Part shown: in pieces, positions 28,917 to 49,985 of the stretch
Layout: each line of letters opens with the position of its first letter
Numbering within the stretch: the stretch's first letter is position 1
Assembly (NCBI GenBank): GCA_903824855.1
Contig: CAIJYI010000005.1
Coordinates: 1-49,985, forward strand
DNA from: an uncultured bacterium
GTDB taxonomy: Bacteria; Patescibacteriota; Minisyncoccia; Phycocordibacterales; CAIJYI01
Direction: 5' to 3'
DNA: 49,985 nucleotides
Position numbers and translations under genes: made by a program
The notes under the pieces: generated by a model
Told to the model about the DNA's origin: nothing
The model's database searches: none
The model's input: only the letters and a program-made list of their open reading frames with translations

Positions 28917-29942
28917 TTAGATTGTGTGATATTTTCCTTCCTTGTCTTTTTTGAAGTATTTTGCGTTTTGGAGATTGACCAAAATGGTGTTTTCCTTGAC
29001 GTATCTTTCTTTCATAACTTTTTCAACAATCTGAGTCTTAGTGAGAGGTCCTTCTTTTTCAAGTACATGGCGGATGACATCTTTGACAACTCCTCCGGTG
29101 TAACCCCATTCAGAGAGGACATAGAGTCCGCGTCCGACGAGTACAAAACGTTTGTCTTTGATGAGTTCGTTGTGACAAGTAGCGATATGAGCTTTCTTTC
29201 CGAATGTCTGTGAGATGTTCTTTGCGACTTCTGTGAAGTGCATCGGTGATCCATGTCGGCGAATGACGAGGAAAGCGTAATCTCTGATACCTCTCGCACT
29301 AATGTTTGGTGATGAAGCAACGCCCCAGTCTCCGAGAGTATTTTTTCCGAGAACTTTGGAAATTCCGAGCCATCTTTTTGCGGTGTGCTCATTTTTTCGT
29401 TTCGGGTCAGCATGCATTCTATCTAAGAATCGTTCGATTATTTCTTTTTCAGGGATTAAATCGCTATCCGAGAATTCTTTGTGGAGAGAATGAAGTACTG
29501 CGTGAACTTCGGAAGCCATTTCATCATTGACTGACCAGCGGTGTTTGAAAGTATCATCTTCTTTATGTTTCGTGAAGTCATCAGAAAGGACGAGGAAAAG
29601 GGTGATGTGATTCTGAATGGTCTTATCCGGTGAGATGTGCTCAAGGAAATCTTCTTCGCTCATGATTCCACCGAGGGATTCAAGAATGGTGCGGAGTTCT
29701 TCGATGGCGCTTGCGGCCTTTTCGAAAGCTTCGGATTTTTTGAGAGATGTGAGTGCAAAGTTTTCAATCTGTCGAACACGTTCCCTGGTTATACCATAGG
29801 TATTGCCGATTGATTCAAGAGTTTTTCGCTCAGGATTCTCGTCCAAACCGAAACGTCCAATAATGACGTCGCGTGCTCTCGGAGGTATTGTGGTAAGCAA
29901 ACTTTTTGTTACCTGCTTTGGCTTAAATGTTATAACTGACAT
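28917..29942 (-). CDS. Sigma-70 region 4-like HTH protein with C-terminal winged-helix domains
   Basis: RFGL..TLESIGNTYGITRERVRQIE, PMHFTEV..HNELIKDKRFVLVGRGLY; no sigma region 2. Confidence 0.85.
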   Translation of the reverse strand: MSVITFKPKQVTKSLLTTIPPRARDVIIGRFGLDENPERKTLESIGNTYGITRERVRQIENFALTSLKKSEAFEKAASAIEELRTILESLGGIMSEEDFLEHISPDKTIQNHITLFLVLSDDFTKHKEDDTFKHRWSVNDEMASEVHAVLHSLHKEFSDSDLIPEKEIIERFLDRMHADPKRKNEHTAKRWLGISKVLGKNTLGDWGVASSPNISARGIRDYAFLVIRRHGSPMHFTEVAKNISQTFGKKAHIATCHNELIKDKRFVLVGRGLYVLSEWGYTGGVVKDVIRHVLEKEGPLTKTQIVEKVMKERYVKENTILVNLQNAKYFKKDKEGKYHTI

Positions 29943-30155: not shown

Positions 30156-32972
30156 TTAAACAACAATACTTACCAGCTTTCCTTTTACATAAATTATCTT
30201 TTTTACTTCTTTTCCGTCGGTCCATTTTGAAACTTCCGGAATGGTCATTGCGTACTCTTTGATTGATTCCTCTGACCCATTGCGTGCAACCTCAAAGGTC
30301 GCGCGAAGCTTTCCATTTACCTGAACTCCTATGGTCATCATCTCACTTGAAATTTTTGATTCATCATAAGTCGGCCATGCTTCATTATAGATAAATGTAT
30401 TGTGACCAAGTTCATGCCACAATTCATCGGTAATGTGAGGAGCAAGTGGTGCTAACAATTTCAGATATCCTTCGAATATTGCGACGGGTATCTTTTCCTC
30501 TTTTTCAAATTCGTTCAAAAGAATCATCATTTTTGAAATTACCGTATTGAATTTGAAATCTTCTATATCTTCCCCGACTTTCTTTATTGTCTGATTATAG
30601 AGAGTCTCTAATTTATTACTTAGTTCACATTCACCGACTTTATCGGAAATCTTCCAGACTTTTTCCAGAAAACGCCTCGGACCAATAATACTCTCAGTAC
30701 TCCAGGTAGAGGTTTGATCAAATGGCCCCATAAACATTTCATATACGCGTAAGGTGTCAGCCCCGTATAAATTGACGATATCATCGGGATTAATGACATT
30801 TCCCCACCGCTTGCTCATCTTCCTTCCGTCTTCAGCAAGGATATTACCGAGAAATTCGAGCCGTTTAAACGGTTCGGAATAATTTACTACCCCGATATCA
30901 AAAAGGAATTTATGCCAAAAACGCGCGTAAATAAGATGACGTGTTGCGTGATCACCCCCGACATAAACATCAACGGGTGACCAGTATTTTTCTTTTTCTT
31001 TATCAACCGGCGCATTTTGATTACGAGGATCAATGTATCGCAAATAGTACCAGGAAGACCCGGCCCAGTTTGGCATGGTGTTTGTTTCGCGTTTTGCGTT
31101 ACCGTTGCATTTTGGACATTTCACATCCACCCAACTATGGATATTTGCGAGCGGTGATTCCCCTGTTCCTGACGGCTCGTATGAATCCACGTCCGGTAAT
31201 TTCACCGGCAAATCTTTTTCCGGTACCGGAACGACTCCGCAATTCTCACAGTGAATGACAGGAATCGGTTCTCCCCAATATCTTTGACGAGAAAAAACCC
31301 AATCGCGAAGTTTGTAAGTAGTTTTTAATTTTCCTCCGGCGAATTCGGTGATGGATTTTTTCGCTTCATCTGACGTGAGACCTGAAAATTCTCCCGAATC
31401 CTTCATAATACCCGGCCCTGAATAAACATCATTATTTACCAAACGTGAAAAAACGAGTGAATGTAATTCATCTTTTACTTTATTTCTTACATCTTCTCTG
31501 GTTATCCATTCAACAGTAAACTTTCCTTTTTCATCATCTTCGTGTTGTGTTGAAACCGTATCGTTATCAATAAGTTCAAAGTATAATCCGATTGCTTCAA
31601 TTTCTCTGTTTACTCCTTTGGAATGTGCAATGTAATGATGGTGAATTTTTTCGGAAGAAGAAATAAATTTCAAGTTTTTATAACCGGTTTCTTCTTCGAT
31701 TTCCCGAAGGGCGCATGCGATAGAATCTTCATCACCTTCTCTTCCCCCGCCGACAAAAAGATTTCCTCCCAATTTTTCACCCCAATTAATAGAGAGAAAA
31801 GTATCATTCATTGTATTATGAACAACGGCGACAATACTTTTTCGAAATTCTTCATTTTCTCTTTTTTCTCCCGTTATCGGTTCGATGACTGTTTTTATCG
31901 GAATATCAAACTTTTTTGCAAAAGCGAGATCTCTTTCGTCATGAGCAGGTACGGCCATAATGGCACCGGTTCCGTAGTGAGCCAAAACATAATCAGCGAT
32001 AAAAATTGGAAGCTCCTCTTTATTTACTGGATTTACAGCAAAAATCCCTTCAAGTTTTACTCCGGTCTTTTCTTTACCTTCGGCAGTTCTTTCGATTTCT
32101 GTTTTCTTTTTTACTTCCTCACGATACGCCTCAACATCATTCCAATTTCTAATATCTCTTTTCCATTCATCGATTAATTTGTGTTCAGGAGAAAGAACAA
32201 CGTATGTTGCGCCAAAAAGAGTATCGGGCCTTGTTGTAAATACTTTAAACGAGGATTCGTTTGTCGTCGTAAATTCCAATTCTGCGCCTTCTGATCTTCC
32301 AATCCAATTCCTTTGCGCTTCTTTCACATGATTCGGCCAATTGAGCGAATCGAGGTCTTCGATAAGTCTGTCGGCGTAATCAGTAATGCGAAGAACCCAC
32401 TGTCTCATAGGTTTCTTTTCGACGGTTGTTCCGCATCGTTCACAGGAATTTCCATCAAGGTCTTCATTCGCTAATCCCGTCTGACAACTCGGGCACCAAT
32501 TTACCGGTTCAAATGATTCATAGGCGAGTCCTTTCTCGAGCATTTTCAAGAATATCCATTGCGTCCATTTATAGTATTTTGTATCGGTAGTATTTATTTC
32601 CCTCTCCCAGTCATAATTGAAACCGATGTTTGAAAGTTGTTCTTTAAACCGCGCGACATTTTTCTCCACGGCAACCCGCGGATGAATCTTATTTTTTATG
32701 GCATATTGTTCTGCTGGCAAACCAAAAGCGTCCCACCCCATCGGATGCAATATATTGTATCCGTTCATTTTTTTGAAACGAGAGTAGATGTCTGAAGCGA
32801 TGTATCCTTTCGGATGTCCAACATGAAGACCTTCTCCTGAAGGAAAAGGAAACATGTCCAGAATGTAACACTTTGGTTTATCGCCACCTTCCTCCGTTTT
32901 GTAGATTTCGTGTTTCTCCCACTCGTGTTGCCACATCTTTTCGATTTTTGAGTGATTGTATTCCTTTGTCAT
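30156..32972 (-). CDS. leuS: Leucine--tRNA ligase with an internal Nudix domain
   Basis: MFPFPSGEGLHVGH, FTTRPDT, GTGAIMAVPAHDERD, DWVFSRQRYWGEPIP and KMSKR; Nudix insertion at about 31430-31880. Confidence 0.97.
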   Translation of the reverse strand: MTKEYNHSKIEKMWQHEWEKHEIYKTEEGGDKPKCYILDMFPFPSGEGLHVGHPKGYIASDIYSRFKKMNGYNILHPMGWDAFGLPAEQYAIKNKIHPRVAVEKNVARFKEQLSNIGFNYDWEREINTTDTKYYKWTQWIFLKMLEKGLAYESFEPVNWCPSCQTGLANEDLDGNSCERCGTTVEKKPMRQWVLRITDYADRLIEDLDSLNWPNHVKEAQRNWIGRSEGAELEFTTTNESSFKVFTTRPDTLFGATYVVLSPEHKLIDEWKRDIRNWNDVEAYREEVKKKTEIERTAEGKEKTGVKLEGIFAVNPVNKEELPIFIADYVLAHYGTGAIMAVPAHDERDLAFAKKFDIPIKTVIEPITGEKRENEEFRKSIVAVVHNTMNDTFLSINWGEKLGGNLFVGGGREGDEDSIACALREIEEETGYKNLKFISSSEKIHHHYIAHSKGVNREIEAIGLYFELIDNDTVSTQHEDDEKGKFTVEWITREDVRNKVKDELHSLVFSRLVNNDVYSGPGIMKDSGEFSGLTSDEAKKSITEFAGGKLKTTYKLRDWVFSRQRYWGEPIPVIHCENCGVVPVPEKDLPVKLPDVDSYEPSGTGESPLANIHSWVDVKCPKCNGNAKRETNTMPNWAGSSWYYLRYIDPRNQNAPVDKEKEKYWSPVDVYVGGDHATRHLIYARFWHKFLFDIGVVNYSEPFKRLEFLGNILAEDGRKMSKRWGNVINPDDIVNLYGADTLRVYEMFMGPFDQTSTWSTESIIGPRRFLEKVWKISDKVGECELSNKLETLYNQTIKKVGEDIEDFKFNTVISKMMILLNEFEKEEKIPVAIFEGYLKLLAPLAPHITDELWHELGHNTFIYNEAWPTYDESKISSEMMTIGVQVNGKLRATFEVARNGSEESIKEYAMTIPEVSKWTDGKEVKKIIYVKGKLVSIVV

Positions 32973-42531: not shown

Positions 42532-43692
42532 TCACGGTTTTTCTTCAACCTTTTCGATATCACTGATTTCCTTTTCAATTTTTTGTTCCAAATTGTCTAT
42601 ATCATTACTGACGACGGAAAGTTTTTCGATATCGGTGGCGGTCGTATTTCCCTGCAATTTTGTTCGAATATCTTCTTTTAATATATCCATTGATTCGTGT
42701 AGGGTTTCTTCCGCTTCTTTGGCTTCGCGTCTTACGGCAATTCTTCTCTTCCAATCATCCCTTAGATGTTGAATAATTCTCCATATCAAGTAAAGAATTA
42801 CAAGAATAAGGAGGAAGAAGGCAAATTTAACTTCCCATCCAAGATCCGAAAAGATACTTCCGACACTAATAGATATTGAATTTGAGTCTTTACTATTCAA
42901 TCCGTTTTCCTTAATAACACGGGCTGTTACGGCATAATCACCTCGTTTAAGTGATTGAGGTACCACTAAAGTAAAACTTCCATCTTCATCAGCATTTCCC
43001 ATTATGAAAATTTTTGCCCCGGTTGTTGAAAGAAAGGTAACGAGAACCTGAATCTTCGGATAATCTGAAGTTCCGGTAATTGCTTCTGCTCCATATTTGG
43101 AACCAAGCGCTATTTCAGGAGGATTAAGTGTCGGTGCCGGTTGTGGAACCTCCGGTACTACCGGTAATGCCGGCGTTATCTGCAATGCAGGAGTAGTTGT
43201 CACCTTTGGTTTAGCGGCGATTATGGTATAGGAAGCGCCCCTTGTTGAATCCATCAAATCTGTTCCTTGCCCGTCATTTGCTAAAATTTGCCCGGACTGG
43301 AAAGTAACGCTTCCTGTACCCGTTTTAATTCCATGCAAAGTTGCAGAAACGACAGTTCCTGATAACTCTTTGATTCCCCCCGGAGTTACTCCTTCAAGAG
43401 AAAGTGTCCCGGCGCTTCTCGAAAGTGTCGGCTCTTTTACCCAGAAAGTGAGAAGAGACCCGGCTTTCGAAATTGAATCTATGGAAAAAATGGAAGGCGG
43501 AAACAATAAGGATAAAGAAACAGCATTAAAAGGAGCATCACTCGTTGAGATGGCGCGGACAGTGAAGGGTTGTCCGACTTCGTACGTTCCCGAGGATGGA
43601 CTAATACTGAGAGACGCCGCATAGGAATATACCGGTATGCAAACAAGCGCCAGAAGAAAAAAGAGTATTATTTTATGTAATTTTGTTTGCAT
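42532..43692 (-). CDS. Cohesin-like domain + Ig-like domain + TM + cytoplasmic coiled coil
   Basis: Signal peptide; SLSISPSSGTYEVGQPFTV..NAVSLSLLFP..FWVKEP..GTGSVTF..LANDGQGT; Pro-rich linker; ITGTS..ADEDGSFT; TM FAFFLLILVILYLIW. Confidence 0.8.
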   Translation of the reverse strand: MQTKLHKIILFFLLALVCIPVYSYAASLSISPSSGTYEVGQPFTVRAISTSDAPFNAVSLSLLFPPSIFSIDSISKAGSLLTFWVKEPTLSRSAGTLSLEGVTPGGIKELSGTVVSATLHGIKTGTGSVTFQSGQILANDGQGTDLMDSTRGASYTIIAAKPKVTTTPALQITPALPVVPEVPQPAPTLNPPEIALGSKYGAEAITGTSDYPKIQVLVTFLSTTGAKIFIMGNADEDGSFTLVVPQSLKRGDYAVTARVIKENGLNSKDSNSISISVGSIFSDLGWEVKFAFFLLILVILYLIWRIIQHLRDDWKRRIAVRREAKEAEETLHESMDILKEDIRTKLQGNTTATDIEKLSVVSNDIDNLEQKIEKEISDIEKVEEKP

Positions 43693-44560
43693 GTTTTTTT
43701 CTGTAAATGAAAAAGATTGTAGATATTAATAAAAGTAAAATAATGGTAAGGGCAAATATTTGCATTTTGGATATGTTACCCATCTCTACTTCCGCAATCT
43801 TTTCATTTCCCTTTTTATCAAAAGCTTTGACGATTATTTTCGTATCCAAAGATTGATTTTTCAAAAGATACGGACTGACGGCGGGAATAAAGGAGGCACC
43901 GTTATCTTCGCTCACCTCGTAATGATCAATCCCTGAACCTTTATCTTGAGTGGCAAAAACAAGAAAGTATTTTCCGTCAAAAATGTTCACATCTTTCGAA
44001 ACAATTGGAACAAAATTTTCCGGTGATTCCGTATCTTTTACGGCTTCAATATTTAGAGATGACGTCGCAAAATCGGTGGTAACAGTAAACGAATATGGTG
44101 ATGAGGAAACTTTTGCAACGGTACCGATACCGTCATTTTTTAATAATCGCAAACTATCTGTTTGAATAAAATCAGCTCCACTTTTCTTAGTTTGAAAAAC
44201 TGCGGAAAACAACAATCCGTTCGTACCCGAATATCCTCCCGGAGTGATTCCGGAAAAAATTATGGCCCCCTGTTTTTCTCCAATCGATAATTGTTTAAAA
44301 CCCGGTCTTTCAATCCAAAAATTTATCAGCGAATTTCCGTCTCGTATTTCTTTTCCCTGCAAGATATCAGCCGAATAGAGAATTCTTCCTTCGTAAGCAT
44401 TAATTGCTTCCCTTTCCGTATTAAGGAAAACAGAAACGAGAAATTCTTCATTTTGTGCGAATGTTTGTTTATCTGTAACAACGGAAATCTGCGCACCAAA
44501 TGTTGATTGGGCGACAAATATTAGGAATAATACTATGATGGTTTTTTTAAACATGTTCAT
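43673..44560 (-). CDS. Cohesin-like domain protein with a C-terminal membrane anchor
   Basis: Signal peptide; EEFLVSVFLNTE..INAYEGRILY..FWIERP..FSGITPGG..LKNDGIGT; QDKGSGIDHYEV; C-terminal TM plus RKK. Confidence 0.8.
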   Translation of the reverse strand: MNMFKKTIIVLFLIFVAQSTFGAQISVVTDKQTFAQNEEFLVSVFLNTEREAINAYEGRILYSADILQGKEIRDGNSLINFWIERPGFKQLSIGEKQGAIIFSGITPGGYSGTNGLLFSAVFQTKKSGADFIQTDSLRLLKNDGIGTVAKVSSSPYSFTVTTDFATSSLNIEAVKDTESPENFVPIVSKDVNIFDGKYFLVFATQDKGSGIDHYEVSEDNGASFIPAVSPYLLKNQSLDTKIIVKAFDKKGNEKIAEVEMGNISKMQIFALTIILLLLISTIFFIYRKKHANKIT

Positions 44561-44594
44561 GATTTTATGGAAATTCTTTATTATCAAATCGTAA

Positions 44595-45932
44595 TTATCC
44601 GGTCCAGTAGTAGGCCATAATACTAAAGTCAGTGAGGTCGATTTTTCCGTCTCCATTCAACTTAATAAACTCTGTCTGTTTAAAGGTAGCGCTCAAAGGT
44701 TTCTTATACCAATAAGCGGCGATGGAGAAGTCTACAAGATTAACACGGCAATCAGAGTTGAGATCTCCTTTTACGGGACATTTTCCCGGGGTTATGGAAA
44801 TATTTTTCGTACCTACTTTGAAACCTACGGTATTACTAAATTGACTAATTTCCCCTCCGATTGCAGCCTTTGATTTTGCCGAGTGTCCGCCAAGTTCCAG
44901 TACGGAACTATCAAAATTTAATAAATAAACTCCATTCTTATCGGATTGTTTTTGAACAAAAATATTTGAATCAGAATTTACGTTTATTGTAATTTGCGCA
45001 TTCGGTGTACTTTGCCCAAATATCGCGATGTTCTCACCTTTTATAACTTCGCTTTTATCAACCGCAATAGTCGGCGCAATAAATATTCCTCCGATTTTTG
45101 TGGTTACACCGGCGGTAATATAAACGGGAAAAGTAAATACGCTTGAACGAATTCCATTTTTATCTTCTCCATAAACTGAAAAATTATAATTTCCAGCAGA
45201 AAGTGAATTTAAGCTAGCAAAGAAATTACTGTCGGGACCGGCAATAGTCGTGAGTACTATTTGTCCGTCTTTCAAAAAACTGACTTTACTCAAAGGATAT
45301 GCTCTTCCGGAAAATTCAACATTTGTTTGAACAGCTGGCGGAGTACCTCCACCTCCCCCACCACCTCCTCCACCGGGAACTATTGGCGGAATAATTGGCG
45401 CGACGGGAGTAGCCGAAACTTCAGTTGATGAGGCGATAGAATTTCCAAAGGCATCTTTTACTACAACGACAAAATAATACGGGGTTCCATTTGATAGCCC
45501 ACCTTGAATATATGTTGTGACATTTCCCAGCGTGTAATAAGTATATGGACCTCCTGATACCGTAGATTGCGCAACGGTATAAGCTGTTGGTGTCCAACCT
45601 AAATATCCGAGTGCTGCGTTCCAAAATAATGATATTTGCGCATTACCCGGTGTTGTTGAAACGACGGGAGAAGAAGCAAAAGGAAAATATAGAAAACCGG
45701 CATTATTGCCAAAGGAAGCAGAACTGCTGACACCGTTTGAGACTTGAGAGATGACTCCGTAGAGATTAAAATTTGCCGATGAACCATAACCTCCGGCATT
45801 CATAACAGGATCAAGCACTTTATAATTCGTTGAACTGAATTGATCTGAATACGCGAGTCCCGCACCAAAAAACGACATAACAAAGAAAATGAGAGTGAAA
45901 AATAATCTTTGTTGTGTTTTTTTAGAAATCAT
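44595..45932 (-). CDS. Secreted Fn3/Ig-like protein with a C-terminal dockerin-like module
   Basis: Signal peptide; Fn3 (PGNAQISLFW..GLSNGTPYYFVVV); poly-Gly linker; two Ig-like repeats; GDLNSDCRVNLVDFSI and LNGDGKIDLTDFSI. Confidence 0.85.
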   Translation of the reverse strand: MISKKTQQRLFFTLIFFVMSFFGAGLAYSDQFSSTNYKVLDPVMNAGGYGSSANFNLYGVISQVSNGVSSSASFGNNAGFLYFPFASSPVVSTTPGNAQISLFWNAALGYLGWTPTAYTVAQSTVSGGPYTYYTLGNVTTYIQGGLSNGTPYYFVVVVKDAFGNSIASSTEVSATPVAPIIPPIVPGGGGGGGGGGTPPAVQTNVEFSGRAYPLSKVSFLKDGQIVLTTIAGPDSNFFASLNSLSAGNYNFSVYGEDKNGIRSSVFTFPVYITAGVTTKIGGIFIAPTIAVDKSEVIKGENIAIFGQSTPNAQITINVNSDSNIFVQKQSDKNGVYLLNFDSSVLELGGHSAKSKAAIGGEISQFSNTVGFKVGTKNISITPGKCPVKGDLNSDCRVNLVDFSIAAYWYKKPLSATFKQTEFIKLNGDGKIDLTDFSIMAYYWTG

Positions 45933-45944
45933 TTAATGAAAATT

Positions 45945-46802
45945 TTATTGCGCGGAAGGATTTGCCGTATCGGGGGTTGGTTCCGTTTCTGTTGTTGTGA
46001 AGGATTCGAGCAACACGTCTACAACCTCTTGAACTTTGGGGACATTAATAATCGGCGCAGGTTCAGTTGTTGGACTAGAAACCGTTTCATCAACGGCAGG
46101 CGAAGCATTTACCGGTTCGGGTGTTGGTTCGATAACAACAGGAACAGTGTCGGTAGCATTCGTTTGATTTTCAATAATGTTTGTTGTATTTGTTTCAACC
46201 TGTTCCGGATATTGGGTGGAAACAATGACTCTTTCCGGATGATTTTCGACGTTAGTTTCTTCTTGAACAACTTCCGGAATTACGGGAACATACCCTGCTA
46301 TCACCTCCTCTTTTGGATTCAATAACTTTCCAATTAATCCCGAATATTCTGTAACTATTTCTTTTTGAGACTCCCCTTTCGCTATCTCCATTTTTTGAAC
46401 TTTTTTCAGATAAGATAATTCGTAATTTATGTTTTCCCCGAGTTCCTTCGCGATGAATAAACCGAGATCTTTTCCTTCAAGTGAATCCTTGCTAATAGTA
46501 AGGACTTTTTCCATCTGTTTGTTTTGCCAAACGCTATTTTCTATCACGATAGTTTGATAGGAGTAATCGGCGTAATAATTTTTTTCATCATCCTTAATGG
46601 AATTGATTCTCAAATTGAAATTATACGCATCAAGATCTACGGTGAGTATCCAATTATTATCTACTGAAACGACGGTTGACTGACTGGAATAAACGGAAGA
46701 AGGATTTGCTGCGAAGGTAATGCCGAAGCCGAAGAAAAACAAAGCGAGGAGTATAGTAAAGGCATTATTGTATTTTACAAAATTGAAAAATTTAGTATAC
46801 AT
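45945..46802 (-). CDS. Exported hypothetical protein with a Pro/Thr/Glu-rich tail
   Basis: N-terminal hydrophobic segment; ATG at 46802 with TATAAT 7 nt upstream. Confidence 0.8.
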   Translation of the reverse strand: MYTKFFNFVKYNNAFTILLALFFFGFGITFAANPSSVYSSQSTVVSVDNNWILTVDLDAYNFNLRINSIKDDEKNYYADYSYQTIVIENSVWQNKQMEKVLTISKDSLEGKDLGLFIAKELGENINYELSYLKKVQKMEIAKGESQKEIVTEYSGLIGKLLNPKEEVIAGYVPVIPEVVQEETNVENHPERVIVSTQYPEQVETNTTNIIENQTNATDTVPVVIEPTPEPVNASPAVDETVSSPTTEPAPIINVPKVQEVVDVLLESFTTTETEPTPDTANPSAQ

Positions 46803-46843
46803 GCCATCTATTATAAGGGATAACAAAAAGCAAATCAACGCAT

Positions 46844-46880
46844 AAAAAAAACCTGTGTGGCATTCCCAACAGGTTTTTTT
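46844..46880 (-). terminator. Intrinsic terminator after the Ser/Pro repeat gene
   Basis: AAAAAAAACCTGT..ACAGGTTTTTTT. Confidence 0.7.
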
Positions 46881-49800
46881 ATGTCATCCAATATACTCCA
46901 TTCACATCTCTTATCGATTCACGAGGCACACCATTTACCGTTTTAATCTGGGCTTCGTTGACCTCATTAATCGAAAGAAGTTCAATCAACGCAACGGAAG
47001 GACTCGGCGAAGGCGAAATGGATGATGAAGGGCTTTGGCTCGGAGAGATTGATGCTGAGGGGCTTGGAGATATCGACGGCGATATTGAGCTTGAAGGACT
47101 TGATGATGGTGAGTATGAAGGCGAGATTGATGGACTGATTGATGGAGATTCCGAAGGCGAGAGTGAAGGGCTAACAGATGCCGAAGGACTGATTGAAGAC
47201 GAAGGGCTTAATGATGGAGAAGCTGACGGCGAGACAGACGGACTAACGGAAGCTGAAGGACTTTGTGATGGAGAAGATGAAGGCGAGGCTGATGGACTAA
47301 TAGATGCTGAAGGACTGAGTGATGGAGATTCTGATGGAGAGAGAGAAGGACTAACGGAAGCTGAAGGACTCAGAGATGGTGAGAGTGAGGGAGAGAGTGA
47401 TGGACTAACAGATGCCGAAGGACTCAAGCTCGGCGAGAGTGAGGTTGAAGGACTTCGTGACGGCGAAAGAGACGTTGACGGCGAAAGAGATGGCGAGATC
47501 GATGGAGAGAGTGATGGGCTGATAGATGCCGACGGACTCAGTGATGGAGATTCCGAAGGCGAGAGTGATGGACTAGCCGACGTCGATGGACTCAGAGATG
47601 GAGATTCAGACGGAGAGAGTGATGGACTGGCGGATACTGAAGGACTCAGAGATGGAGATTCTGAAGGTGAAGTTGAAGGACTGATTGATGATGACGGACT
47701 CAATGATGGAGATTCCGAAGGAGAGAGAGAAGTGCTTGGAGAAAGCGATGGACTAATTGATGTGCTTGGGCTCTGCGAAGAAGATCCTCCAATCGGAGTT
47801 GAGGGGCTTATTGAAGAACTCGGACTCAACGAAGGAGACTCTGATGGAGAGTCAGATGGAGAAACTGAAGTTGATGGACTTTGTGACGGAGATTCTGATG
47901 GAGAGAGTGAAGGACTGGCGGAAGCTGAAGGACTCAGAGACGGAGAAAGTGAGGGAGAGAGTGATGGACTGATTGATGATGAAGGACTGGTTGATGATGA
48001 AGGACTCTGAGATGGAGAAGATGAAGGAGAAAGCGATGGACTAACGGAAGTTGAAGGACTTTGTGATGGAGAAGATGAAGGAGAAAGCGATGGACTGATA
48101 GATGCCGAAGGACTGAGTGATGGTGAGACTGATGGAGAGATTGATGGACTGACGGAAGTTGAGGGACTCAGAGATGGAGAAGATGAAGGAGAGATGGATG
48201 GGCTAACGGAAGCCGAAGGACTCTGAGAAGGAGAAGATGACGGCGAGACAGATGGACTAACGGAAGTTGAAGGACTCAGAGACGGCGAGGTTGACGGCGA
48301 AGATGATGGACTAATAGAAGCTGAAGGACTGAGCGATGGAGATTCTGAAGGAGAGATTGATGGACTAACAGATGTTGAAGGACTCAAGCTCGGCGAGAGT
48401 GAAGTTGAAGGACTTCGTGATGGCGAGACGGACGTTGACGGCGAAAGAGATGGCGAGATTGATGGAGAGGATGAAGGACTGAGTGAAGAAGATGGACTCA
48501 GAGAAGGAGAAGATGATGGAGAGACAGACGGACTAACGGAAGTTGAAGGACTAAGTGATGGAGAAACTGACGGAGAGACTGATGGACTGACGGAAGTAGA
48601 AGGACTGAGTGACGGTGAGATTGACGGTGAGGAAGATGGACTAATAGAAGACGATGGACTCAGAGATGGAGAAGATGATGGAGAAATTGATGGGCTAACA
48701 GATGTCGAAGGACTCAGAGATGGAGATTCTGATGGAGAGATTGATGGACTGATGGAGGTTGAAGGACTGGTTGAAGAACTCGGGCTCAAGCTCGGACTAG
48801 ATGATGGTGATGCAGATGATGATGGAGATAGAGATGGCGAAGGTGATGGGCCGGCAAGTCTCAAATGTGTCGTAATCATCGACCATGAAAGACTGCCGAA
48901 CCCGACGAGGGTGGCACTCGACTTCATAGATCTGGCCGACGCGTCATAATATTCCTGTATCTGGGAGTCTACTACTCTTACCCCCGGAGCTGCAGTAATC
49001 TTGTCTTCCCTTCTCTCCGTTTCGCCATTTTCCGGATCTACATATAACGAAATGTTGTTTGCTAATGGCGCACTTCCCAACATTGAGATGGCCATACTAC
49101 CAGTCAATCCTTCCGCTAATGAGATTGAAGCATGTTGCGGTGATCCTCCTGAACCGTTCGCTATCGAAATTTCAGTAAATGCGCTTTCTGTACTTGATGA
49201 ACCTGTATAAGAAACAGCCGACCATGCATGGTTTGTGGAGGAATCAAAAGTAACGGAAATCAATTCGCTTCCGGCGTTTTCTCTAAAAACAAACCAGAAC
49301 TCGTTAGATAAAACGGTGGAGTCAGAACTTTTCGCCAAAAATGTCATCGATACTCCGGCGATTGTCACACTGCTCGGCCCGGTTGTTCCAAGATAAGAAA
49401 CATTGAACACAACCATCACGTTTGCGTCATGAGTTAAAGTTGCGCTTGAATTTGTTCCTGTTCCATTTGAACCGGTATCTGCATCATAAGCAACAGGCGG
49501 AATTGAAGGAGAAGCAGAACTTGATGGACTCAAGCTCGGACTTTCTGATGGTGAGTCAGATGGGCTCACCGATGTCGATGGACTCAAACTTGGTGAGATT
49601 GAGGTTGAAGGGCTAAGCGAAGGTGAGCTTGACGTTGACGGTGAAAGCGAAGGAGAAATTGACGGAGAACTAGAAGGAGAAATTGAACTTGAAGGACTGA
49701 GCGATGGAGAGACCGACGGAGAATTTGAAGGAGAAACAGAACTCGATGGACTCAGTGATGGAGAGACTGATGGTGAATTAGATGGCGAAACAGAACTCGA

Positions 49801-49985
49801 CTGAGAAAGCGAGGGAGAAACTGATGGAGAGTTAGAAGGAGAAATCGAACTTGAAGGACTCGAGCTCGGAGAGATGGATGATGATGGCGAAAGCGATGGA
49901 GAAATCGAACTCGATGGACTGAGTGATGGTGAGACAGATGGTGAGTTTGAAGGACTCACTGAAGAACTCGGGCTTAGTGATGGAG
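46879..49985 (-). CDS. Giant alternating-serine (SPSx) repeat surface protein, 5'-truncated by the window edge
   Basis: The frame is open to the window end (over 1030 codons visible). Two S-x dipeptide tracts flank an in-frame, non-repetitive beta-rich domain of about 215 aa (about 48850-49500). Confidence 0.88.
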   Translation of the reverse strand, partial: PSLSPSSSVSPSNSPSVSPSLSPSSSISPSLSPSSSISPSSSPSSSISPSNSPSVSPSLSQSSSVSPSNSPSVSPSLSPSSSVSPSNSPSVSPSLSPSSSISPSSSPSISPSLSPSTSSSPSLSPSTSISPSLSPSTSVSPSDSPSESPSLSPSSSASPSIPPVAYDADTGSNGTGTNSSATLTHDANVMVVFNVSYLGTTGPSSVTIAGVSMTFLAKSSDSTVLSNEFWFVFRENAGSELISVTFDSSTNHAWSAVSYTGSSSTESAFTEISIANGSGGSPQHASISLAEGLTGSMAISMLGSAPLANNISLYVDPENGETERREDKITAAPGVRVVDSQIQEYYDASARSMKSSATLVGFGSLSWSMITTHLRLAGPSPSPSLSPSSSASPSSSPSLSPSSSTSPSTSISPSISPSESPSLSPSTSVSPSISPSSSPSLSPSSSISPSSSPSISPSLSPSTSVSPSVSPSVSPSLSPSTSVSPSVSPSSSPSLSPSSSLSPSSSPSISPSLSPSTSVSPSRSPSTSLSPSLSPSTSVSPSISPSESPSLSPSASISPSSSPSTSPSLSPSTSVSPSVSPSSSPSQSPSASVSPSISPSSSPSLSPSTSVSPSISPSVSPSLSPSASISPSLSPSSSPSQSPSTSVSPSLSPSSSPSQSPSSSTSPSSSISPSLSPSLSPSLSPSASASPSLSPSESPSQSPSTSVSPSDSPSESPSLSPSSSISPSTPIGGSSSQSPSTSISPSLSPSTSLSPSESPSLSPSSSISPSTSPSESPSLSPSVSASPSLSPSESPSLSPSTSASPSLSPSESPSLSPSASISPSLSPSISPSLSPSTSLSPSRSPSTSLSPSLSPSASVSPSLSPSLSPSLSPSASVSPSLSPSESPSLSPSASISPSASPSSSPSQSPSASVSPSVSPSASPSLSPSSSISPSASVSPSLSPSESPSISPSISPSYSPSSSPSSSISPSISPSPSASISPSQSPSSSISPSPSPSVALIELLSINEVNEAQIKTVNGVPRESIRDVNGVYWMT

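Follow-up and report, generated by a model that had tools for sequence, protein, structure and literature searches.

How would an ultrasmall bacterium modify, export and anchor a giant serine-rich surface protein? This question is raised by one end of contig CAIJYI010000005.1, from an uncultured member of the Patescibacteriota. The whole of this contig (C5 of the source genome, hereafter G000), 49,985 nucleotides in length, is referred to below as the window. The source genome amounts to 1.1 Mb in 45 contigs, with about 40% GC and a completeness estimate of 100%; the genomes of its relatives span 0.5-1.4 Mb. On the minus strand at the high-coordinate end of the window lies the 3' part of a gene encoding a serine/proline-rich protein, called here the fibre gene. 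The initial annotation of this DNA likened its product to serine-rich repeat proteins (SRRPs) and mucins.

Our best reading is that the fibre gene encodes the cargo of a gene cluster with a patchy distribution in a class of ultrasmall bacteria resembling those of the candidate phyla radiation (CPR). The anatomy of the protein and the composition of the cluster can be described with high confidence. Gene content further suggests that the product would be a phage-derived surface fibre, glycosylated in the cytoplasm and possibly exported by the twin-arginine translocation (Tat) system. This interpretation as a whole is held tentatively, at slightly less than an even chance. Of its parts, glycosylation of the stalk, argued by analogy, is rather probable, whereas the Tat export step, suggested by gene neighbourhood, is doubtful; anchoring would follow from the cluster context.

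Extent and anatomy of the fibre gene

The fibre open reading frame (ORF), whose codons occupy 46879..49983, is open up to the last base of the window and its 5' end lies beyond the contig end (Table 1). Its 1034 visible residues comprise 44.7% Ser and 17.3% Pro and include 165 SPS motifs; no other SPS-rich ORF is found in the 45-contig assembly. From the N- to the C-terminal side, the visible protein consists of a 160-aa repeat, a 218-aa globular domain, a 618-aa repeat and a 38-aa non-repetitive tail. An extent of 46990..49985 had been proposed for the gene. The minus-strand repeat ORF behind that proposal is real, but the tail (46882-46995) and the stop codon fall outside its start coordinate. 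On the plus strand, positions 46958-48010 hold a 350-aa Asp/Glu/Gly-rich ORF, a shadow of the fibre repeat that could be mis-called as a gene.

Table 1. Coordinates of the window features discussed in the text, counted from its first letter.
Feature	Position	Strand	Basis or remark
Ser/Pro-rich fibre gene, 3' part	46879..49985	minus	ORF list; 1034 codons and TAA stop at 46879-46881
N-proximal SPSx/SPSxSx repeat, 160 aa visible, S 56.9%, P 21.2%	49504..49985	minus	collapsed repeat of high depth over the last ~360 nt
218-aa all-beta domain, two sandwich/jelly-roll sub-domains, actinophage 'minor tail protein' fold (predicted)	48850..49503	minus	AlphaFold (AF2) model, BFVD, PHROGs
C-proximal repeat, 618 aa, 18-aa super-repeat of three SPSx and one SPSxSx	46996..48849	minus	unit count, TRF, self-identity
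Conserved 38-aa C-terminal tail, three ~11-aa units h-I-K-T-V-N-G-h	46882..46995	minus	alignments; 18 positions invariant in 4 genomes
Terminator-like hairpin, 7-bp stem, 12-nt loop, T7 run	46844..46875	minus	read from sequence; 3 nt past the fibre stop
Promoter-like site TTGATT-17-TATAAT, 10/12	46810..46838	minus	consensus match only; precedes the 297 family gene
'297 family' gene: N-terminal membrane anchor, ~170-aa conserved ectodomain, Pro/Glu-rich tail	45945..46802	minus	transmembrane segment at residue 24
445-aa secreted protein, weak Big_6 Ig and dockerin matches	44595..45932	minus	Pfam, below cut-off
327-aa protein, signal peptide and C-terminal transmembrane helix	43673..44656	minus	orthologues follow in G157, G203
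386-aa signal-peptide protein, second hydrophobic stretch at residue 280	42532..43692	minus	longer G102 relative: weak cohesin, Big_13 matches

Misassembly had been named as a possible concern. Contigs of the Logan collection, taken from four lake-metagenome runs of one study that possibly includes the source sample, tile positions 44500-49798 with 0 differences, so this independent assembly reproduces the locus. Within 49624-49985 (~360 nt), the summed Logan depth goes up by about 10-30 fold and several alternative joints are seen. Because of this jump and of these joints, contig C5 is considered to end in a collapsed repeat past which the gene runs on, as the initial annotation had anticipated in stating that the gene continues. 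In addition, one low-depth joint skips 47144-47669 (a single contig, with 20 letters on its shorter side), a support too weak for a length variant to be called.

The hairpin that follows the fibre stop codon is omitted by the hairpin scanner used, whose loop limit is 8. Together with the promoter-like site that precedes the next gene, of what we call the 297 family, it argues that the two genes form separate transcription units.

A repeat stalk descended from one DNA unit

About 800 residues with Ser at nearly every second position, arranged in SPSx and SPSxSx units, had been reported for this gene, and counting bears out both statements. Over the 778 repeat residues, Ser is found at both i and i+2 at 49.6% of positions, versus 29.4% expected from composition, with only 9% of Ser-Ser neighbours; the C-proximal part contains 90 SPSx and 39 SPSxSx units. 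Self-identity of the repeat is highest at lag 18 (0.737), and Tandem Repeats Finder (TRF) returns a 54-nt period with 27.9 copies and 66% matches.

The mixture of AGY and TCN serine codons had further been taken to mean that the repeat is conserved in protein rather than in DNA. The codons are indeed mixed. However, the AGY share is ordinary (22.7% of repeat Ser codons, against 23.2% in the other window genes), and codon preference depends on position, the first Ser of SPS being mostly AGT or TCT and the second mostly TCA. These two features indicate that the units descend from a single DNA unit, which was duplicated and then diverged to ~65-80% identity. Thus, the repeat is not purely the result of protein-level convergence.

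The stalk is a low-complexity Ser/Pro chain bearing a folded beta-sandwich module. If each residue adds about 0.3 nm, the 618-aa part of this chain would extend over ~190 nm, and the ~2000-aa stalk of an orthologue described below over several hundred nm. Such lengths are comparable to or above the size of an ultrasmall (CPR-like) cell.

Orthologues and the constant C-terminal tail

The relatives compared here belong to the same genus (G001, G003 and G005), to the same order (G102 and G130) or more broadly to the same class (G157, from another order, G203 and G412). The 38-aa tail closes Ser-rich ORFs in six of them (G001, G102, G130, G157, G203 and G412). The G001 orthologue is complete, with 3981 aa and 458 SPS motifs. 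It begins with a 389-aa globular domain, continues with three modules of ~375 aa joined by SPS linkers and ~2000 aa of SPS repeat, and finishes with the same tail, after which come the same two downstream genes. The N-terminal and internal modules vary by genome, while stalk and tail are constant. The fibre is therefore modular: a long Ser/Pro stalk, interchangeable binding modules predicted to be phage-type beta-sandwiches, and a conserved tail.

An export signal had been expected of the full gene, and the proposed analogy was made to depend on it. No N-terminal hydrophobic signal peptide is found in the complete orthologues (G001, two G130 proteins, G157) or at the N-terminus of the G102 protein. 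This result goes against the initial annotation and is softened only by the Tat system encoded in the same cluster. The N-terminal domain of the G001 orthologue was not found in the G000 assembly, from which the 5' end of the fibre gene is not recoverable on another contig. BLASTP shows no detectable relation between the window domain and the G157 N-terminus (E 2.5), and the N-termini of the other orthologues have no firm match in PHROGs or Pfam.

With the last 50 fibre residues as query, no relative was found among proteins of 568-1810 aa. A search of the class gave twelve weak tail matches (E 6e-5 to 7e-4). Four weak matches that were inspected (L047, L048, L050 and L052) fall in the C-terminal domain of RNA polymerase alpha, on its helix-hairpin-helix region (E about 1e-4), and were taken as chance.

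G130 encodes a second Ser-rich protein (L038, that is G130:C10:1-7208, and L021:12751-13404). It has at least 2402 aa on one contig, probably continues on another, and ends without the tail; its C-terminal domain is common to the viral contigs L064, L074 and L076 (40-65% identity).

An embedded domain with a phage-type fold

The initial annotation had also pointed to an embedded globular domain of about 215 aa, which is present with 218 aa, and had proposed to examine it with Foldseek. Pfam gives no match for this domain, nor for the whole fibre protein. In PHROGs, residues 3-199 of the domain match phrog_553, 'minor tail protein' (E 5.1e-7), and tblastn retrieves four Gordonia phage records (E 4e-3 to 9e-3). 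A HMMER search over 1.84 billion representatives gave 47 relatives at E<=1e-3. In many of the 16 relatives inspected, the domain stands at the extreme N-terminus, without a signal peptide, and is followed by varied degenerate tandem repeats; in one of them it runs straight into an SPSx repeat.

Using a 30-sequence alignment, AlphaFold modelled the domain with a pLDDT of 96.6 and a pTM of 0.93 (pLDDT 34 when no alignment was supplied). This model has 76 matches at E<=1e-3 in BFVD, a database of predicted viral structures. Minor tail proteins of the mycobacteriophages Tweety, Hawkeye and Gaia rank first (TM-score 0.74-0.78 over ~220 columns, Foldseek E about 1e-10), and among the best 50 of the 76, whose identities are 12-23%, 18 bear the name minor tail protein and come from Mycobacterium or Gordonia phages. 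Thus, the two-sandwich fold would be common to the window domain and to the actinophage minor tail proteins, a group with no solved structure or known ligand. In the PDB, Foldseek gave no match to the model at E<=1e-3. With VIA-align, which compared 48,161 chains, Z reached at most 7.0, for generic jelly rolls, carbohydrate-binding modules and TNF/C1q-like folds, each covering only half of the model. Accordingly, judged from the predicted model, no specific relative can be named among solved structures.

The domain, sporadic in the lineage, was not found in any of 60 relatives searched, and its profile is found in only 4 of 401 class genomes, G000 included.

A cluster of transferases and Tat genes

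The Ser-rich gene stands in a recurrent cluster in at least seven genomes of the class, in three of which the cluster was verified throughout. Upstream of the G001 fibre gene lie GT2 glycosyltransferases, Methyltransf_24 enzymes and a GIY-YIG gene, whose G000 copies are found at the start of contig C33, facing outward. The G001 synteny and the orientation of C33 place the end of C5 next to the start of C33, with a gap between them that corresponds to the unassembled 5' part of the fibre gene. At the very start of C33 (G000:C33:1-96, L016), two copies of a ~48-nt unit contain the perfect palindrome TCTGAACTTGATTCAGAA and have the appearance of a hairpin repeat of the repetitive extragenic palindromic (REP) type. 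This palindromic unit probably helped to break the assembly.

Glycosyltransferases near the fibre gene had been suggested as a check of the glycosylation idea, and by synteny such genes lie directly upstream. The enzyme block (C33:858-15304, ~14.5 kb) contains 15 ORFs, 11 of which match GT2, GT17 or S-adenosylmethionine (SAM) methyltransferases, one of these matches being a weak GT2 hit below cut-off. The enzymes appear soluble: no convincing transmembrane segment is present in the 15 ORFs, among which no lipid-carrier, flippase or polymerase gene was seen either. Past the enzymes, C33 encodes a 252-aa zinc-ribbon-like protein, a 94-aa ORF with a twin-arginine (RR) motif, two TatA proteins, TatC and a 359-aa signal-peptide protein. 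The TatC and TatA genes (C33:16657-18293) are the only Tat genes in G000. Moreover, the 94-aa ORF, placed between the Tat genes and the enzymes and comprising RRTFLK and a hydrophobic stretch, carries the only convincing twin-arginine signal in a genome-wide scan. For the 94-aa, 252-aa and 359-aa proteins, no firm match came from PHROGs or Pfam. This Tat context, like the phage-like modules, had been missed by the initial annotation.

The order of the cluster is the 359-aa family, TatC, TatA, the twin-arginine protein, the zinc-ribbon protein, the transferases, the Ser-rich protein with its tail, the 297-family protein and a cohesin/dockerin-like operon. The full order stands on a single contig in G157 (C25), whose cluster was also retrieved by tblastn. 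On one contig of G001 (C45) the order is the same except for TatA and the small RR ORF, not identified there. The Ser-rich gene, the cluster TatC and two large multidomain glycosyltransferase/methyltransferase proteins are all present in G001, G102 and G130. In the congeneric G003 and G005 (100% and 90% complete), the Ser-rich gene, the 297-family gene, TatC and the transferases were not found, and the downstream operon is kept.

TatC is encoded by 15 of the 401 class genomes sampled, and by all four of those with a strong tail match (G000, G157, G203 and G412, from four families). The hypergeometric chance of this co-occurrence is ~1.3e-6, a significance overstated by relatedness among the genomes. 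The G000 TatC is 57% identical to that of G001, from the same genus, and 62% identical to that of G157, from another order. As the sequences suggest, the patchiness of the cluster may reflect transfer as well as loss.

Two variant clusters were noticed, L033 (G093:C1:404000-423900) and L034 (G115:C2:32000-51900), which contain more distant 297-family genes. Both encode a conserved protein of ~130 aa, Ser/Thr-rich proteins of 1090-1514 aa and further ORFs; the G093 cluster includes a small protein resembling a Tat signal, and that of G115 has ORFs that by eye resemble TatA and TatC. They may belong to a broader family of Tat-linked surface islands.

Relation to phage structural genes

The 389-aa N-terminal domain of the G001 orthologue has relatives in 24 viral loci of IMG/VR (35-64% identity), and its nearest Atlas clusters are 94-98% viral. 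The PHROGs scan took in 84 proteins from six of these 24 loci. In L060, the homologous gene comes after those for a terminase, a head protease and the major head protein. A head-tail adaptor is encoded next to it in L059 and one large gene later in L064 and L072, with Neck1 within two genes; in L061 it is surrounded by terminase, portal and major tail protein genes. Because the gene sits between head genes and the head-tail adaptor in the checked contigs that have head genes, a virion (head) fibre is suggested. Several viral copies carry the stalk as well, with 102 SPS motifs in L059, 81 in L064 and 65 in L074, and those of L064 and L074 end in the C-terminal domain of the second G130 Ser-rich protein. 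Directly upstream in L055 and L074 stand glycosyltransferase and methyltransferase genes, the former 55-59% identical to the C33 GT2; glycosyltransferase genes are also present in L060 and L072.

This raises the possibility that the fibre gene is a phage structural gene in a chromosome, that is, prophage-like remnant or cargo. It would encode a glycosylated head or tail fibre of a virion, released by lysis, for which an export signal would be needless. In this way the minor-tail-protein fold, the signal-less N-termini of all complete orthologues, the company of the G001 N-terminal domain, SPSx stalk and similar glycosyltransferase genes in structural phage contigs, the adjoining GIY-YIG gene and the patchy distribution would be accounted for together. 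However, no terminase, portal, capsid or tail gene is found in C33:1-20000, in the window, or in the full G001 and G157 clusters, and 12 hallmark proteins of related viral contigs gave no tblastn match in G000. The cluster is flanked by housekeeping genes. Finally, the constant tail, the Tat genes and the membrane-anchored neighbour accompany the chromosomal copies and were not found in the 24 viral loci. Such a virion fibre is the main rival to a surface fibre of the cell, and we regard it as unlikely. What phage genomes and the chromosomal cluster have in common is a module of stalk and transferases, and the chromosomal cluster itself is not a prophage.

Described systems offer parallels for this module. 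Phage-encoded glycosyltransferases of mycobacteriophages are described as acting on the Ser/Thr-rich C-termini of capsid and tail-tube proteins (PMC12619734, citing Freeman 2023). The likeness is that, in the viral contigs examined here, glycosyltransferase and methyltransferase genes lie directly upstream of structural genes with an SPSx stalk. The mycobacteriophage glycans are borne by short C-terminal extensions of capsid or tail-tube subunits, whereas here the candidate substrate would be a fibre protein in its own right, with hundreds to thousands of residues; moreover, the copy studied here lies on a chromosome, together with Tat genes and a neighbouring gene for a membrane-anchored protein. 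As to the viral copies, phi29 gp8.5 and T4 Hoc are head fibres or decoration proteins of phages. The copies of L060, L059, L064 and L072 would resemble these in gene position, right after the head genes in L060 and upstream of the head-tail connector genes in the other three, and in having an N-terminal attachment domain, an extended part and a distal domain. Fibres of the phi29 gp8.5/T4 Hoc type consist of coiled coil or Ig domains, in contrast to the Ser/Pro repeat of the stalk.

A possible pathway and the objections to it

A cytoplasmically glycosylated, phage-derived surface fibre could be produced as follows. The soluble glycosyl- and methyltransferases would O-glycosylate the serines of the stalk in the cytoplasm and methylate their sugars. 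Then, the signal-less fibre would be exported post-translationally via the cluster's own Tat translocase, perhaps carried as a passenger by the small twin-arginine protein. The constant C-terminal tail would serve as an export or docking handle, possibly on the membrane protein of the 297 family. Once outside, the fibre would serve the cell surface as an adhesin or spacer coated with glycans.

For export, the closest described biology may be Tat 'hitchhiking', in which a twin-arginine partner carries signal-less subunits, as for the hydrogenase HybO/HybC; for the module, by analogy, it would be phage virion glycosylation and head fibres. As in hitchhiking, a signal-less protein is encoded near a small RRxFLK protein and the only Tat genes. 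The known hitchhikers, unlike the fibre, are folded cofactor enzymes of ordinary size.

Several points weigh against this pathway. Tat normally moves folded, much smaller proteins, and there would be no precedent for a passenger chain of 1000-4000 aa that is mostly disordered. No twin-arginine motif was seen at the N-termini of the orthologues, and the fibre's own N-terminus lies beyond the contig end; with the RRTFLK signal on a separate, adjacent 94-aa protein, transport as a passenger would be the one conceivable mode. Genes in one travelling block co-occur regardless of joint function, and the Tat and 297-family links are thus associations only. The hairpin and the promoter-like site place the Ser-rich and 297-family genes in separate transcription units. 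A wall glycan or a lipid-linked one could be what the soluble transferases make instead. The cohesin/dockerin-like operon also occurs without the island and may be a mere neighbour. Furthermore, the 218-aa domain itself matches phages only by fold, and weakly by sequence; used as a single query in the viral-locus search, it gave no viral relative. It is for the G001 N-terminal domain, the stalk and the enzymes, rather than for the exact window domain, that viral homologies are seen. A complex prediction of the tail with the 297-family ectodomain, run without controls, returned a score of 0.00 and no answer, which counts neither for nor against binding.

A further alternative is a surface or wall spacer in which the Ser/Pro tract is an unmodified or lightly modified entropic linker, exported by an unrecognized route, the transferases serving another envelope glycan and Tat only the twin-arginine protein. 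Pro/Ser/Thr linkers are common in secreted multidomain proteins, a shared transferable block need not mean one pathway, and the Ser-rich gene would be a transcription unit of its own. Against it, enzymes, Tat genes and Ser-rich gene remain one block of unchanged order in different families and orders, with proteins that are 57-75% identical. The lack of lipid-carrier, flippase and polymerase genes among the 15 enzyme-block ORFs does not favour another glycan, and the pairing of enzymes with a stalk recurs in phage contigs. This explanation appears somewhat less likely still than the virion fibre. As to an assembly artefact or a non-coding simple repeat left open by chance, to which the contig end in a repeat with raised depth and alternative joints could point, it is very improbable in view of 1034 stop-free codons, of a folded conserved domain and a conserved tail in frame, of exact agreement with contigs from four runs and of syntenic orthologues in six other genomes.

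The surface fibre with cytoplasmic glycosylation thus remains our preferred reading. In its strongest form, it would amount to a third biogenesis route for giant serine-rich glycoproteins, combining cytoplasmic O-glycosylation and sugar methylation, signal-less Tat export via the tail and/or a twin-arginine 'pilot', and docking on a membrane anchor, with a module exchanged with phages that would put the same coat on cell and virion. In this complete form the proposal is unlikely.

Comparison with serine-rich repeat proteins and CPR pili

The analogy with streptococcal and staphylococcal SRRPs (GspB, Fap1, PsrP and SraP) deserves attention, since it was the starting point of the initial annotation. 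As an analogy, it survives. The fibre and the SRRPs both have a binding region set into a Ser-rich stalk of great length, and their transferase genes adjoin the substrate gene, with a dedicated translocase in the same locus; such likenesses are analogous, not homologous. SRRPs are reported to be glycosylated inside the cell, before dedicated export (PMC7948813; PMC5578698).

As a statement of family membership or of mechanism, the comparison fails. The fibre repeat does match the ClfA, SdrC/D and 'serine-rich protein' models of NCBIfam (E 1e-15 to 5e-27), but these are low-complexity matches, all far below the cut-offs: for the SD-repeat MSCRAMM models (ClfA and SdrC/D), repeat-only scores of 94, 58 and 53 bits stand against cut-offs of 1150, 1700 and 2500. 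Accessory Sec genes, for which a search had been advised, are lacking in G000, where one SecY (PF00344, contig C12) and one SecA (PF07517, contig C18) are found. Likewise, no sortase was detected in G000 (PF04203, for which control genomes give matches), and the fibre has no LPXTG and ends in its non-hydrophobic tail. The orthologues do not show the long N-terminal signal of SRRPs. Also unlike SRRPs, the fibre has an 18-aa super-repeat with regular Pro, phage-like modules and a link to Tat. The cluster enzymes are of the GT2 and GT17 families, with many methyltransferases, and have no match here to SRRP glycosyltransferases; the SRRP enzymes GtfA/B belong to another fold class. With a single SecA and SecY, no sortase and no LPXTG, membership is refuted in practice, and a true streptococcal or staphylococcal SRRP with GtfA/B-type glycosylation and accessory Sec export has next to no chance of being what this gene encodes.

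A second comparison is offered by the Pam pilus operon of CPR bacteria, described as encoding surface filaments with membrane-anchored assembly factors. According to that report, the components all have Sec signal peptides, and a protein termed 'tail fibre-like', which cannot be equated with the fibre gene, co-localizes with pam operons in other CPR classes (PMC13278184). The one point of contact concerns the 445-aa gene of the window (Table 1): the N-terminal 116 residues of its G130 orthologue (L021:5963-7309) match the NCBIfam PamT model with E 9.2e-8, but at 31.8 bits versus a cut-off of 240. The PamT model has no match in G000, and none in the control genomes either. Going by these sequences, a filament system distantly akin to Pam might be encoded by the downstream cohesin/dockerin-like operon. 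In the literature searched on CPR pili, serine-rich surface proteins and Tat or glycosyltransferases, no description of this type of cluster was found.

Downstream genes and other genes of the window

The 297 family gene probably starts at ATG 46802, the ORF list placing its start at TTG 46838. The family shows 52-66% identity across families of the order, and no usable match for the protein was found in the Atlas. Its gene comes directly after the Ser-rich gene, or one small ORF later, in G001, G102, G130, G157, G203 and G412. The 445-aa gene that follows is the first of the cohesin/dockerin-like surface operon and has orthologues in all nine genomes of the family.

Elsewhere in the window, two minus-strand genes have unusual domain combinations. 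At 30156-32972, a leucyl-tRNA synthetase contains a NUDIX match (PF00293, E 1.7e-10, residues 383-497) right after the editing domain, an unusual insertion or fusion. At 28917-29942, a 341-aa protein associates Sigma70 region 4 (E 9e-13) with HARE-HTH (E 3.3e-12), an uncommon pairing.

Implications

Attachment to other cells is presumed to be the way of life of ultrasmall CPR bacteria, yet few of the structures that they use for it are known. The present locus provides a defined candidate: a fibre as long as a cell, with swappable binding heads predicted to be of phage type and with sugar-modifying and export genes of its own. If the Tat link is true, the range of Tat cargo would be extended, and a parallel to the accessory Sec pathway of Gram-positive pathogens would emerge. 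Moreover, the occurrence of the stalk and transferase module in phage contigs points to glycosylated fibres on the phages of these bacteria too, which is relevant to host recognition and to gene flow between phage and host surfaces.

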